This document shows, piece after piece, positions 17,802-24,041 of a stretch of 64,000 bases of DNA. Source of the stretch: an uncultured delta proteobacterium (GTDB taxonomy: Bacteria; Myxococcota; Myxococcia; Myxococcales; Anaeromyxobacteraceae); assembly GCA_963766715.1 (NCBI GenBank), contig CAVYBH010000014.1, positions 1 to 64,000 on the forward strand, written 5' to 3'. The translations under genes were made by a program, and so were the position numbers. The first letter of the stretch is position 1. Each line of letters begins with the position of its first letter. Under the pieces are notes generated by a model. That model saw nothing but the letters and a program-made list of their open reading frames with translations, was not told the origin of the DNA and searched no databases.

Positions 17802-18645
17802 ATGCCCGCCGAACCCGCCGTCCTTCGCGCCACCTTCCGCCGCCTCCACGAGCGCGGCTGCTTCGTCATGCCGAACCCCTGGGACGTGGGCTCGGCCCGC
17901 GCGCTTCAGCACCTGGGATTCCCGGCGCTGGCCACGACCAGCGCGGGGATGGCCTTCTCGCTCGGCCTGCCCGACGGCGGCGTGCCCCGGGCCGTGGTGC
18001 TGGATCACGTCCGCGCCATCGCCGGCGCGGCCGACGTCCCGGTGAACGCCGACTTCGAGTCGGGGTTCGGGGCCGACGCGGCCGGCGTGGCGGAGAGCGT
18101 CCGCCTCTGCGTCGCGACCGGCGTCGCGGGCCTCTCCATCGAGGACGCCACCGGCGACAAGGCGGCGCCCCTCTTCGAGCTCGACGTGGCGGTCGAGCGG
18201 CTGAAGGCGGCCCGGAAGGCCATCGACGAATCGGAGTACCAGCGTGGTCCTCACCGCCCGGGCCGAGTGCTTCCTGGTCGGCCATCCCTCCCCGCTCCGC
18301 GAGTCGATCCGGCGCCTCACCGCCTACGCCGAGGCGGGGGCCGACTGCCTCTACGCGCCCGGCCTGCGCACGTCCGAGGAGGTGGCCGCGGTGGTGAAGG
18401 CCGTGGCGCCGAAGCCGGTGAACGTGCTCGCCGGAGGAACCGCCTTCACCGTCGCCCGGCTCCGCGAGCTGGGCGCTCGCCGCATCAGCGTGGGCGCGGC
18501 GCTCTCGCGCACGGCCTGGGGCGCCTTCCTTCGTGCGGCCGGCGAGATCGCCGAGAAGGGCTCCTTCGACGGGTTCGCCGCCGCGGAGCCCTTCTCCCGC
18601 CTGAACGCCTTCTTCGTCGAGGACGGAAAGCGCAGGGGCGGGTAG
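17802..18645 (+). CDS. Isocitrate lyase / PEP mutase family protein (frameshift near 18240)
   Basis: PNPWDVGSA, ATTSAG, NADFESGF, SIEDATG, LTARAE, AGADCLYAPG, RRISVG. Confidence 0.9.
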
Positions 18646-18649
18646 CGCC

Positions 18650-19509
18650 TCAGGACCGGTTCGGCGACCAGCCCGAGGGCGGCCGGGCGTAGCTGGCGTC
18701 GCGGCGGAAGGGATCGGCGTTCCGGCGAAGCTGGGCGTCGTTCGGGTCGCAGCGGTTGCCGTCCACGTTCACGCCGGCGGCGAGCAGCCCGGCCCGATCG
18801 TCGTAGCGCAAGCGAGAGCGTCACCTCCGGGCGCGAGCTCTCCCGCAGGAAGGCGACGTGCTGCACGTGCGAGTCGTGCTCCTCGCCGAAGCTCGTCCCC
18901 AGACCGGGACGCCTCGCCTCGGCGGTGGCGCCGGCCGCGGAGGGAGATGGGGGAGCACGAGGCCGGCCGCGCCGAGTCCTGCATCGACTCGGCCTTCGCG
19001 CTCCGCTCGGCGGGCGCCGCCTCCCGCAGGGGAACGGCCCGGACACGCCGCTCCGGGAAGACCGCCACGCCGATCACGCCGACGTCGCGCGCGTCCCCCT
19101 CCAGCGCCGCGTAGGACCGCGACACCGTCCCGAACCTGAAGGCCGCCACCGCGTCCTCGGAGAGCCGGTAGCCGTCGATCACCACCTGGCCGTACGGCTC
19201 CACCAGGTAGCCGCGCTTCTCCAGCGCCGACGGGCCGCCGTCGATCACGTCGCGGCCGTCCACGCTCACCACCACCTCGGCGCGCCGTCCCGACTGGTTG
19301 CGCACCCGCACCCGGTAGCGCTTCCCTGCCGTGCCCAGCACGTAGCTGCGATCGCGGTGGAAGAACGTCGGGAGCGCCTGCCCCGAGTCGTCGATGAGCT
19401 CGAAGGACCAGCTTCCCCGGGCGGCCGGGGAGTCCTCCCGCGCCGGGGTGGCTTCCGGGAAGGTGCAGCCGAGGACGGTGGCGAGGACCAAGAGTGTCGT
19501 GACGCGCAT
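18650..19509 (-). CDS. Conserved hypothetical lipoprotein, divergent from the ECF sigma (frameshifted; end approximate)
   Basis: Lipobox VLGC; RYRVRVRN..EVVVSVDGRDV..RGYLV..IDGYRLS..VAAFRF..SYAA..VGVIGVAVF; AGGAGG RBS. Confidence 0.75.
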
Positions 19510-19597
19510 GTGAAGCCTCCTTTCCCGATGGAACGGACGAGGGCCGAAAAGGATCTGGAGGATTCGTCCTTCGACCCGGGGAGTAGGATGGGCGCGG

Positions 19598-20167
19598 GTG
19601 ACGCAGGACACCGACGAGGCGCTCGTGGCGCGCTACCGGCAAGGAGACGTGGCGGCGTTCGAGGTCCTCCTCGATCGGCACCGCCCGGGCGTGTTCCGCT
19701 TCCTGGCCCGCTTCACCGGCGACCACGCCCGCGCCGAGGACCTGGCCCAGGACTGCTGGATGCGCTTCATCGACGCCGCCCCCCGCTGGAACGCCGATGG
19801 CCGCTTCAAGATCTGGCTCTACGCGGTGGCCCGCAACCTGGCCACCGACGAGGCGCGGCGGGCCACCCATCGCTCGCACGCCTCGCTCGACGCCCCGGTG
19901 CGCGGACGGCCGGTGAGCGAGCTCGTGCCCGAGCGGCGGGCGCGCTCCCGGAGGACGCGGCCGGCGACGCCGAGCTCCGGCCGCGCCTGCTCCGCGCCAT
20001 CGCCGAGCCTGCCGGTGGAGCAGCGGGAGGTCTTCCTGCTCCGGGAGTACGAGGGGGTCTCCTTCGCGGAGATCGCGGAGGTCACCGGCTCGCCCGTTCC
20101 CACCGTGAAGAGCCGGATGCGCTACGCGCTCGAGGCGCTCCGCCGCGCGCTGCAGGAGGTGGCATGA
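19598..20167 (+). CDS. ECF sigma-70 factor
   Basis: TDEALV..GDVAAFEVL, AEDLAQD, FKIWLYAVARN, QREVFLLRE..SFAEIAEVTG..TVKSRMRYA. Confidence 0.93.
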   Translation: MTQDTDEALVARYRQGDVAAFEVLLDRHRPGVFRFLARFTGDHARAEDLAQDCWMRFIDAAPRWNADGRFKIWLYAVARNLATDEARRATHRSHASLDAPVRGRPVSELVPERRARSRRTRPATPSSGRACSAPSPSLPVEQREVFLLREYEGVSFAEIAEVTGSPVPTVKSRMRYALEALRRALQEVA

Positions 20168-21570
20168 CCCACGAGGAAGCGCGGGAGTGGCTGCTCGACC
20201 TGGCCTACGGAGAGCTCGAGACGGACGACCGGCGGCAGGTGGAGGCGCACGTGGCCGGCTGCGCCGAGTGCGCGGCCGAGCTGACGGTGCTCATGCACAC
20301 CCGGGCGGCTGCCGGCCGCCTCTCCGAGCCCGATCTCCCCGGGCGCCGAGAGGAGATTCGTCGAGGCGGCGCGCCGGGCCGTGGCGACGCCGGCGCCGAT
20401 CCGGCGGTCCTCCTGGGCGCGCCCCGCCGCCGCGATGGCCGTGGCGGCGCTCGTGCTCGTCGTGGGCGGGGTGACCTTCCGCTGGTTCGACGAGAGCCCG
20501 CGCCGGGAGGCGGCCGGGAACCAGGTGGTCGCGATCGGGCCGGCCGAGTCCAGGAAGGTGACCGAGTCCGCGCCCGCCGCGCCGCCTGCCGCACCGCCCG
20601 CCGCACGCGTCGCGCCGCCCCGGCCGATGGCCGAGGCGCCCGTCGTGGCGGTGGCGCCGGCCATGAACGCCTCGGCGCGAGGCGCCGGAGGCCCGACGCG
20701 CAAGGCACCCGTCCGCCGCGCCCGCTTCGCCGACCGCGTCGCCGACCGCCGGCGCCGTGGCCTCGCGCGAGATGGCCGACTCGAAGGCCGAGAGCCTCGC
20801 CGCCGCCCCCGCGGCCGCCCGCGCGGCCCGCGCCAAGGAGGCCTCGCCGTTCCCCCCTGGGACCGTCCGGCGCCTTCTCCAGCCTCGATCTGCGCACCGG
20901 CACGCCGTTCCGCGTGAACCCCGCCGGCTGCGCCACCCGCTACGCCCCGTTCTCCACCTTCAAGATCCCGTCGAGCCTGATCGCGCTCGAGACCGGCGTC
21001 GTCGCGAGCCCCGACGACCGCTGGCCCTGGGACGCGAAGAAGTACCCGCCGCCCAGCCCGTCCCCCGGTCCCGACTACGTCCGCGCCTGGAGCCAGGACC
21101 AGACCCTCCGCACCGCGCTCCCGAAGTCCATCGTCTGGTTCTTCCGCGAGGTCGCGACCAAGGTCGGCGAGCCGCGCATGAAGCAGTGGCTCGCCACCTT
21201 CGACTACGGCAACCAGGACGTGTCGGGCGGGCTCGACCGCTTCTGGCTGGGAAGCTCGCTCCGCATCTCTCCCGACGAGCAGGTGGCGTTCCTCGCCAGG
21301 CTCCAGCGCGGGCAGCTCCCGGTTGCGAGGAAGAACCTCGACCTCGTTCAGGAGATCCTCACCCAGGAGACGGGCCGCGGCTGGCGGCTGGTCGCGAAGA
21401 CCGGCTCCTCGGCCACCGGGGAGGGCTGGCTCGTGGGCTGGGTCGAGTCGCCGGGCGGAGGCTGCGCCTTCGCGCTTCATCTGGAGACGTCGAGCTACGA
21501 GGAGATGGCCCGGGTCCGTCCCGGTCTGGCGCGCGACTTCCTCCGCCAGGCGGGGTGCTTCCCGCCCTGA
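20164..21570 (+). CDS. Zinc-binding (zf-HC2) transmembrane anti-sigma factor fused to a class D beta-lactamase / BlaR-like penicillin-binding domain
   Basis: HVAGCAEC; TM AAAMAVAALVLVVGGVTF; Ala/Pro linker; STFK (20953), SIV (21127), YGN (21205), FWL, KTG (21397); no stop between 20164 and 21570 in the start frame. Confidence 0.72.
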   Translation: MTHEEAREWLLDLAYGELETDDRRQVEAHVAGCAECAAELTVLMHTRAAAGRLSEPDLPGRREEIRRGGAPGRGDAGADPAVLLGAPRRRDGRGGARARRGRGDLPLVRREPAPGGGREPGGRDRAGRVQEGDRVRARRAACRTARRTRRAAPADGRGARRGGGAGHERLGARRRRPDAQGTRPPRPLRRPRRRPPAPWPRARWPTRRPRASPPPPRPPARPAPRRPRRSPLGPSGAFSSLDLRTGTPFRVNPAGCATRYAPFSTFKIPSSLIALETGVVASPDDRWPWDAKKYPPPSPSPGPDYVRAWSQDQTLRTALPKSIVWFFREVATKVGEPRMKQWLATFDYGNQDVSGGLDRFWLGSSLRISPDEQVAFLARLQRGQLPVARKNLDLVQEILTQETGRGWRLVAKTGSSATGEGWLVGWVESPGGGCAFALHLETSSYEEMARVRPGLARDFLRQAGCFPP

Positions 21571-21580
21571 CCCCGCCGGC

Positions 21581-21965
21581 TCAGACGTGCAGGAAGCGCC
21601 CGCCGGCGAACGACCAGTTCTCCCAGGTGGTCTCCTTGAAGACCACCATCACGTCCTCGGGGTGCAGTCCGGGCGACCTGGCCAGCCCGGCGATGACGTC
21701 GGCCACGATCTTGCGCTTCACCTTCACGCTCCGTCCCACCGAGAGCAGCACCTCGACGAGGACGAAGTCGGCGGTCCGGCTCCGGCCCAGATCGGGCCAC
21801 TCCCCGTCGTAGCGGAAGTCGTCCTCGCCGAGCTCGAGGACGCGCTGGAAGACGTCCTTCTGCGGAACGCCCGAGGCGACCAGCGCCCGGTGGACGGCGC
21901 CGAGGACGGCCGACTTGAAATCGCGGCGACTTGGGACGGCGGACGGTCAGGGTGACGAGGGGCAT
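21581..21965 (-). CDS. Tautomerase family protein (frameshift near 21925)
   Basis: N-terminal Pro (MPLV), VHRALVASGVP..D.FQR, GRS..VK, C-terminal ENWSFAGG. Confidence 0.85.
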
Positions 21966-22116: not shown

Positions 22117-24041
22117 ATGCGACGCCTCGCCCCCGTCCTCGTCGCCTTCCTCTGGCTCGCCGCCTGCGGCGGCAGCGGAGGGGATCCTCCGCGGTGACGG
22201 TGTCGGTTGCACCCGCAACGACCACCCTGGCCGCCCTGTCCACCGTCCAGTTCGCGAGCACGGTGACTGGCGCGTCCAACACGGCCGTGACCTGGTCCGT
22301 CCAGGAGGGAAGCGCCGGCGGCAGCGTCTCCCCGAGCGGCCTCTACACGGCGCCCGCGTCGCCCGGCACCTTCCACGTGGTCGCGACCAGCCAGGCCGAC
22401 GCCGCGAAGAGCGGGCTCGCCACGGTCACCGTCACCCCGCCGGCCGCCCCGGCGGTGACGTTGACGCCGTCCGCCGCCTCCATCGGCGTGGGGGCGACGG
22501 TGCAGTTCACCGCCACGGTGACGGGCACGGCCAACACCGCGGTCGGCTGGTCGGTGCAGGAGGGCAGCGCCGGGGGCACCGTCTCCCCGACCGGCCTCTA
22601 CACCGCGCCGCTCGTGGCCGGAACCTTCCACGTCGTGGCGACCAGCGCGGCGGACCCGACGCGCACCGGGACGGCCACGGTCGCGGTCGCCCCTGCGGCG
22701 TGCGCATTGCCCGCGCCGCAGGCCTCCGCCCTCCCGGCGAGCCAGGTCCTCGAGCTGGGGATCCACACCGTCGGCGAGACGGTCACCTTCCAGGTGCCGG
22801 CGAGCACGGGCAGCGTCACCCTCCTGCAGCAGGGGGCGGATCCAGCGGCGGCCCGGACGATCACCTTCCGGGGCGCCGTCCTCGACAATACCGTCGTGCC
22901 GCTCACGGTGAGCGTGGGCGGGACCGTCTTCTTCGACGACAACACGGTTCCCCCGGCCGATCCGGCCAGCTGGGGAACGCAGAACGGCATCGGCGCCGTC
23001 TACTTCTTCTCCGAATCCCCCTGGACCGGGACGATGACCGTTCCCAACACCACCAACATGCTCGACTACGTCACGGCCCACGGGGGCGTGCCACAGGGAA
23101 CGTGGTCGGTGGTGGTGAACGACTGGGTCCAGGAGTGCAAGCAGATTGGCGCGTCCTGCGTGGTCGGCGACGGGACCACGAGCTATCCGCCGGGGAGATA
23201 CGACGTGAAGGTGCTCCTCAAGCAGGGCGCGGTGCCGGCCACCGGCGTCCTCGACGTGAACTTCTACCTGGTCACCGACACGCTCACCGCCGCCACCGCG
23301 GCGACCGATCCATCCGTCGCCCGCATGCGCCAGACCCTGGCCACCGTGCTCGCCGGCGCGGGGCTGACGCTCGGCACCGTGGGCTTCGTCGACGTGCCAC
23401 CCGCCGTGAAGACCAGGTTCTCGAACGGCGTGAACGTGGACCAGTCCGGCCCCTGCAGCGAGGTCGCGACCATCCTCCAGCTGTCCACGCCGGGAAACGC
23501 CATGAACCTGTTCCTGGTGAACCAGCTGATCTCGGCGCAGCCCGGCACCGGGGTCGTGGTCGGGATCGACGGGACCGTGCCCGGGCCCTCGTCGGCGGGC
23601 GGAACGGTCTGGAGTGGCGCGCTGGTCTCGATCCAGGATCTGACCGGGGGCGGGAGCGCCGCCTGCCAGGGTGCGGTGAGCCCGACCACCTGCGGCCCGG
23701 ACGCCACCGCGTACATCGCCGCCCACGAGACCGGCCACTTCCTCGGCCTCTACCACGACACCGAGTCCACCGGGACGCTCTTCGACCCGGTGAAGGACAC
23801 GCCCACCTGCCTCTGCAGCGCCTGCGCCCCTGCGTCCCAGGTGGCGAACTGCTCCGCCGCCGCGGTCACGGCCACGACCTACCAGGTGACCACCATCGAC
23901 TGCACGGCGCAGCTCGCCAACCCGTCCAGCGTCTGCGGGGGAGGGGAGAACCTCATGTTCTGGCTCCTGGGCTCCCGGTCCACCGGCGCCGTCACGCCGC
24001 AGCAGGCGCGCATCGTCCGCGCCAATCCACTCGTTCACTAG
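22117..24041 (+). CDS. Lipoprotein with two Ig-like (BIG2-type) repeats and an M43-like metzincin protease domain (frameshift near 22190)
   Basis: Lipobox LAAC; two copies of VQF.ATVTG..NTAV.WSVQEGSAGG.VSP.GLYTAP; HETGHFLGLYH; Met-turn NLM. Confidence 0.8.

Follow-up and report, generated by a model that had tools for sequence, protein, structure and literature searches.

A class D beta-lactamase-like domain recruited into the zinc anti-sigma factor of an ECF switch: a candidate beta-lactam receptor

In the 64,000-nucleotide stretch of DNA analysed here (the window), a gene that overlaps the end of an ECF sigma factor gene encodes, in a single chain, a cytoplasmic zinc anti-sigma domain (ZAS), one transmembrane (TM) helix, a long linker and a class D beta-lactamase-like (OXA) domain. 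Sequence comparison confirms that the fusion is real and establishes its coupling to the ECF factor, the exchange of one periplasmic domain for another and a conserved promoter. A class D domain has, on this evidence, been recruited into an ECF anti-sigma factor, yielding a ZAS with a new periplasmic domain and a narrow range. In members with an intact active site, the OXA domain may act as the receptor for beta-lactam-type compounds in an ECF anti-sigma switch, a reading that we favour tentatively and place a little short of an even chance.

The ECF gene (19598..20167, + strand) is PRK12513-like: it matches Sigma70_r2 (E 4.5e-18) and r4_2 (E 1.3e-13) and scores 203.3 bits against PRK12513, under the cut-off of 206. 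Its end is joined to the start of the fusion by an ATGA overlap at 20164-20167 in the open reading frames, and the start frame of the fusion runs without a stop from 20164 to the TGA at 21568-21570, as the initial annotation had said. The parts of the fusion all lie on the + strand. The zinc domain (20164..20420) matches zf-HC2 (E 4.1e-7; 30.4 bits vs a cut-off of 22.2) and has HxxxCxxC at 20248-20271. An Arg-rich stretch precedes the single predicted TM helix (20423..20479, in the +1 frame), which is probably oriented N-in; an Ala/Pro-rich linker (20480..20845), predicted from pLDDT to be disordered, then leads into the whole mature part of a class D beta-lactamase-like domain (20846..21570; Transpeptidase, PF00905, E 5.5e-29 in the fusion frame). 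The active site of this domain is intact, with STFK (20953-20964), SIV (21127-21135), YGN (21205-21213), FWL (21241-21249) and KTG (21397-21405) in the start frame together with the late Arg. The architecture first proposed for the ECF-overlapping gene thus stands, with zf-HC2, Transpeptidase and five motifs in one frame.

The coding path exits the start frame and re-enters it after three +1 shifts, mapped with P0001, P0002 and P0014 through six-residue matches to 20358-20360, ~20666-20714 and 20865. GC3 framing agrees with these positions, and the compensating indels suspected in the middle of the gene have in this way been located. The ECF gene has three further extra bases, at 19930, 19950 and 20007, judged from public-run contigs of related organisms that omit one letter each; none of the public-run contigs listed covers the whole stretch. 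The extra single bases look like insertion errors, presumably from long reads, and those in the fusion gene happen to total three. The divergent secreted protein gene (18650..19509, - strand), the predicted ECF target, is also broken, P0276 aligning by tblastn in three pieces and three frames; it belongs to no named family. Split frames are seen in the neighbours at 17802-18645 (+), 18650-19509 (-) and 21584-21965 (-), and ORF calls are consequently unreliable across the assembly. Besides the divergent gene, the neighbours are what we take to be a mutase/lyase-like gene and a tautomerase-like gene.

Homologs carry the same architecture. HxxxCxxC, a hydrophobic segment (~residues 87-105) and the OXA domain are found in a single chain in 34 of 63 homolog matches, in keeping with the early statement that the lactamase has no start of its own, and 32 of the 63 are full-length in-frame fusions of 368-464 aa. 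A stop after the linker with an independent start, or a lack of any fused homolog, had been named as grounds for abandoning the fusion; the full-length in-frame proteins show neither. The proposed search for zf-HC2 plus Transpeptidase architectures returned both Pfam labels on 23 of the 63. The zinc-site residues His29, Cys33 and Cys36 are unchanged in 34/34 fusions, and the TM segment has a Kyte-Doolittle value of 2.16 across P0001 residues 87-105. Relatives are labelled as uncultured Anaeromyxobacter sp. (L022) and Anaeromyxobacteraceae (P0412).

The linker measures 65-122 aa in 33 full-length homologs; in an AF2 model of P0001 the zinc and OXA domains are confident and residues 100-206 have pLDDT <50. 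Foldseek with this model finds class D folds (5e2f, E 6.5e-19, TM(target) 0.78), matching BSU-2/YbxI and OXA-48-type folds at TM(target) ~0.78. The class D equivalog NF012161, with a cut-off of 250, is reached neither by the window (181.9) and P0002 (180.7) nor by sister proteins (179.0, 203.7), and the OXA domain, sitting behind ZAS, TM and linker, is not a stand-alone secreted form with a signal peptide. P0002 has zf-HC2 and Transpeptidase as its only Pfam matches, and the score for NF000326 is 139.9 vs 400, far from BlaR1. The fusion is therefore neither BlaR1, with no M56 and no SxN, nor an equivalog-level OXA, with a score below cut-off and no signal peptide. The databases label the fusion proteins 'beta-lactamase class D', which inflates environmental resistance counts, though about half lack key catalytic parts. 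Three Cys residues, in GCAT, GCAF and AGCF, are unchanged in 54/54 fusion-clade rows. Two of them could form a disulfide, the odd count leaving one free. No further independent ZAS-OXA lineage appeared in the best 150 of 12,058 profile matches, and the 26 longer or odd profile matches scanned were solely other kinds of OXA fusion. Nine such fusions (P0080, P0131, P0132, P0138, P0149, P0164, P0169, P0219 and P0253) have as partners DNA_alkylation, Metallophos, SnoaL/DUF4440, a metallo-beta-lactamase fold, a class A lactamase and a polysaccharide deacetylase.

The zinc domain is predicted to hold the ECF factor. The fusion lies directly downstream of the ECF gene in 17/17 loci holding the fusion start (among L020-L051), and a model of the complex between the ECF and the first 80 ZAS residues scores 0.82 vs 0.01 for the best control, with contacts on sigma2 and sigma4, a mark that is passed by 116/157 solved pairs and 2/215 mismatched pairs and that a textbook pair such as ECF-ZAS may pass through likeness to solved pairs. 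Contact agreement between runs is at least 85% and partner pLDDT at least 88. The cognate pairing assumed at the outset is upheld by the loci and the model alike.

The fusion belongs to a three-gene cassette comprising the divergent secreted Ig-fold gene, the ECF gene and the fusion gene. Of 13 other genomes of the genus, five carry the OXA domain, and these five also have the ECF ortholog and the divergent gene, with a clean fusion frame in four of them; with the same queries, none of the three components was found in the remaining eight. The divergent gene stands beside the ECF gene in 10/10 loci reaching far enough. Among 78 genomes of the family's other genera, the OXA domain is found in one, as a stand-alone protein of 49% identity. 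In these genera a ZAS-type gene follows the ECF gene in 24/24 loci, none with OXA, and most of 17 complete ZAS genes end in a small Cys-bounded domain, for which two proteins scanned gave no Pfam match. This ancestral periplasmic domain (L058-L081) is ~100 aa long, with two bounding Cys and a DxxG...YDxxG pattern. Because the ECF and anti-sigma factors of other genera end in this small, unrelated domain, comparison indicates that a mature OXA domain took its place; the OXA join lies at the point where, in sister enzymes made with a signal peptide, the mature chain begins. The closest stand-alone forms, the environmental class D-like P0034, P0047 and P0052 and their kin, share ~60-65% domain identity and an equally long P-loop with the fusions. 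They differ in having hydrophobic N-terminal leaders, and the Lys change and deletions seen in fusions (below) occur in 0/27 of their rows. In the tree all 54 rows of the fusion type fall together, with weak support (81).

A predicted ECF promoter, CAGATCC-TTTT-N-CGTT (GATCC-N15-CGTT; 19530..19557, - strand), faces the secreted gene, and of 17 loci examined, 15 have GATCC-N15-CGTT in this orientation. A second, ECF-facing copy is present in 4/11 fusion loci and absent in the window. In 7/7 loci without an ECF-facing copy, TAGGAT, a putative sigma70-like -10 box (19584..19589, + strand, in the window), stands 8 nt before the ECF start (GTG in the window), and the ECF transcript in these loci is probably leaderless. 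When the window is kept out of the training set, a PWM scores a single site in G000 (completeness 84.6%) highly, at 42 bits, the next reaching 20.9. The strict promoter pattern occurs once per genome in six carriers, always at the cassette, and in 0/8 non-carriers; it was derived from cassette loci, and other genera provide its independent test. A reversed-pattern control gave 0 occurrences in 92 genomes. A loose pattern, which matched all 92 genomes, was dropped as uninformative. Among the targets predicted from the motif in carrier genomes no beta-lactamase, PBP or resistance gene was found, nor any MuiA site. The ECF factor is predicted to drive a single secreted protein, with an Ig fold, and in some lineages its own gene as well.

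This secreted target is 270-286 aa long in relatives and has no Pfam or NCBIfam match. Its AF2 model is an Ig-like beta-sandwich, with a best VIA Z of 6.0 to generic Ig-like folds only; Foldseek gave nothing at E<=0.001, and an Atlas lead, DUF7918, is on 27% of one cluster. An enterobacterial hypothetical lipoprotein encoded between speA and speB (L082:2539-3267) shares a 66-residue stretch with the target at 47%.

Comparison with other genera indicates that target gene and promoter are older than the fusion. Of 38 promoter sites there, all but 5 were examined: 12 lie ahead of the secreted gene, which is unlinked in these genera, 12 ahead of an ECF gene, 7 of a MuiA-like gene, and one each of a VIT protein and a different secreted protein. 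The MuiA-like assignment rests for one protein on a scan (TIGR02231, 392.7 bits vs 112.6) and for six on visible similarity. The set of MuiA/DUF4139 promoters in these genera appears to define a small undescribed regulon. In Pseudomonas aeruginosa, D-cycloserine is reported to induce muiA by way of SbrI (PMC10418997), which hints at an envelope-stress role of the ancestral switch. MuiA/DUF4139-family genes lie behind the ECF promoter at L121:357-2012 and in L126-L128, L131, L144, L146 and L148. A 437-446 aa secreted protein, without Pfam or NCBIfam match in those scanned, does so at L122:1833-3170, L123:1869-3206 and L147:165-1475, and a VIT/vWA/TPR protein of at least 1049 aa in G062 (L120:354-3500).

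The fusion clade divides by the state of its active site. All catalytic residues are kept in 28/54 rows, the window included; these intact rows differ from their consensus by a mean of 15%, with the catalytic residues all invariant. Active-site parts are changed or deleted in the other 26. The SxxK (carbamylated) Lys is replaced in 20 of the 26, by Glu and no other residue (20/20 Glu). In-frame deletions of 22-55 residues over the P-loop are present in 25, at least five deletion types taking out the P-loop or more, and the whole SxV motif is gone in eight. At the third SxV position, the 46 rows keeping the motif have V, A, G or D and never the N of BlaR1-type SxN; the hydrolase-like SxV originally noticed is that of the window. 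The nucleophile Ser is retained in 25 altered rows; the late Arg, invariant in the 28 intact and 15 sister rows, is lost in seven, and the KTG Lys gives way to Arg or Asn in three.

These alterations recur. A tree of 32 full-length proteins requires five or more changes of the Lys/Glu state and six of the deletion class, counts that recombination could inflate; topologies with a single clade are rejected both for Glu rows (p-AU 1.6e-67) and for the deletion class (4.8e-61). The trees exclude the frameshifted P0056 and P0014 as well as P0068, which comes from the window itself, and quick-tree counts of 7 and 10 changes were set aside as overstated, P0073 looking chimeric. Where DNA is at hand for a Glu row (five loci), GAG stands against AAG, one transition. 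The dN/dS is 0.32 for altered (34 pairs) vs 0.26 for intact members (54 pairs), the pairs being non-independent and dS GC-biased; by this measure, altered OXA domains are still under purifying selection. Invariant core columns number 64/176 in altered rows and 66/176 in intact rows, and because the core is about equally conserved in both, retention of the Ser says little by itself.

Acidic residues at the same Lys and Val in OXA-24/40 (K84D, V130D) cause deacylation deficiency (PMC9293634), and a stable BlaR1 adduct forms through loss of the lysine carbamate (PMC5957439). Given the OXA-24/40 variants, the group with the 22-residue deletion, Glu and Asp/Gly/Ala looks like a trap. In two pairs of sisters sharing a deletion, Glu is found in one only (P0031 vs P0044; P0054 vs P0053), a pattern that compensation of the fold would fit as well as trapping. 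Rows without the late Arg (7), the KTG Lys (3) or the Ser (1) appear to reflect binding decay, and altered rows lacking SxV or the late Arg would hardly bind beta-lactams.

In the receptor mechanism, we infer each signalling step. The folded OXA domain would shield the linker and TM helix against RseP-type proteolysis; acylation of the active-site Ser would render the linker cleavable; site-1 and then site-2 cleavage would free the sigma factor, and the freed ECF would turn on the secreted Ig-fold gene. M50 proteases are encoded in G000. Several lineages have likely shifted from hydrolase towards a trap of longer lifetime (Lys to Glu, Val to Asp/Gly/Ala, loss of the P-loop), and some altered lineages may then have lost binding entirely, keeping the cap function alone. 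Two facts make a sensor role plausible: other genera have a different periplasmic domain in the slot of the OXA domain, and 28/28 intact rows keep the catalytic residues. It is preferred because active-site selection is strict in a regulator probably made in low amount, as the leaderless, non-autoregulated arrangement in 7/11 loci suggests; such selection in a probable low-copy regulator would fit sensing better than resistance. A disordered linker as long as 65-122 aa leaves no room for rigid transmission of the signal. The beta-lactam sensing first proposed is thus retained as plausible, for the slot and the intact rows, but not as a simple beta-lactam switch, since the predicted target is not a resistance gene and 26/54 rows are altered; the hydrolase-type SxV of the window also counts against a sensor.

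Nearly as likely is a tethered enzyme that doubles as a steric cap, the folded OXA domain blocking RseP and providing a degree of hydrolysis in the periplasm without ligand coupling, while the ECF answers general envelope stress via linker proteolysis. Catalysis would then have been lost repeatedly, with Glu replacing the lost carbamate and keeping the fold stable. The multiple deletions that remove the P-loop or more agree with this, as does the retention of cassette, promoter and purifying selection in altered lineages, and so does a promoter and target gene that predate the fusion. In Myxococcus xanthus, the bulky periplasmic domain of DdvA blocks RseP and its removal triggers cleavage (PMC11506125), and such an effect would explain the retention of dead OXA domains. 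Resistance from a low-copy anti-sigma factor should, however, be weak, yet every intact row keeps the catalytic residues; the enzyme would not be self-induced, the window lineage having no ECF-facing promoter copy (7/11 fusion loci); and the earliest losses hit the P-loop and the general base, not the Ser.

Distinctly less probable is a receptor for another ligand, be it peptidoglycan stem peptides, beta-lactones or some other natural product that acylates, with the widened pockets of altered forms reflecting changes in specificity. The clade scores 180-204 bits, below the class D equivalog cut-off of 250, and its P-loop segment has 32 residues vs 22-31 in distant enzymes; conserved motifs are, according to Lupo 2022, no guarantee of beta-lactamase activity. 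Against this, intact rows keep all beta-lactam-binding residues, the late Arg too, and no candidate ligand pathway is conserved near the cassette. An assembly artefact or two separate genes, to which the many single-base insertions in the window and the start of P0014, P0019 and P0020 inside the linker might point, is already refuted by intact homologs and barely worth entertaining: the 32 full-length fusions come from several sources, four of five carrier genomes have a clean frame, the three linker-start proteins have no hydrophobic N-terminus, and the cluster of P0067 contains the full fusion P0412.

The receptor mechanism has parallels in known systems. Bacillus thuringiensis SigP controls beta-lactam resistance; in SigP-RsiP-PbpP a separate PBP is the proposed beta-lactam sensor, with no RsiP contact detected (PMC8092216). 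Both systems have a membrane anti-sigma factor that holds an ECF, a penicillin-binding-type Ser domain and regulated proteolysis, the last presumed here; the fusion would work like SigP-RsiP-PbpP in one chain. Unlike that system, the fusion has its OXA-like domain inside the anti-sigma factor, and its ECF is predicted to act on a gene for a secreted Ig-fold protein; unlike the SigP regulon, the predicted motif marks no beta-lactamase genes, the only strong site in each carrier genome being the one at the cassette. With BlaR1/MecR1 (PMC5957439), the fusion shares a class D-like extracellular domain on a membrane regulator, but it has no M56, one TM helix, SxV instead of SxN, and an ECF output. 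DdvA-DdvS of M. xanthus likewise combines a zinc anti-sigma factor, one TM helix and a flexible linker with a periplasmic domain that has an enzyme fold; DdvA shields against RseP, as the OXA domain of the fusion may, and has its own TPR-CHAT domain and defence-island control, with no homology to the OXA part implied (PMC11506125). Similar to SbrI-SbrR-muiA of P. aeruginosa (ECF35) is a small envelope-stress regulon with a MuiA-family gene, here in other genera only; the SbrI promoter is TAACCCG/CGTCT vs GATCC/CGTT here, which sets the two apart.

Literature searches, and Lupo 2022 as far as covered, yielded no published description of a ZAS-OXA fusion, though further supplements and subscription papers may bear on the question; cluster 21 of Lupo 2022 holds three sequences extended at the N-terminus by as much as 423 aa. 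In the part of the Casas-Pastor 2021 supplement covered, 'transpeptidase' has 0 occurrences. A rather doubtful extension would make the one-protein beta-lactam receptor anti-sigma factor a third sensing route beside BlaR1 and PbpP/RsiP, a captured secreted OXA with, in one genus, at least four convergences on Glu plus P-loop loss and a natural hydrolase-to-trap series. Because intact, Lys-to-Glu and deleted forms all exist in nature, they offer a direct test of a passage from hydrolase to receptor or passive cap, and the one-gene regulon with its defined promoter permits a simple reporter test; a positive reporter would provide a compact beta-lactam biosensor for Gram-negative hosts.

Elsewhere in the window, a second, distant ECF-like gene (31% identity) lies at 6076-5549 (-). 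The region 22200-24041 (+) encodes a long secreted protein with Ig-like repeats, which is not kept beside the cassette in relatives and which contains HETGH, presumably a metalloprotease-like motif.
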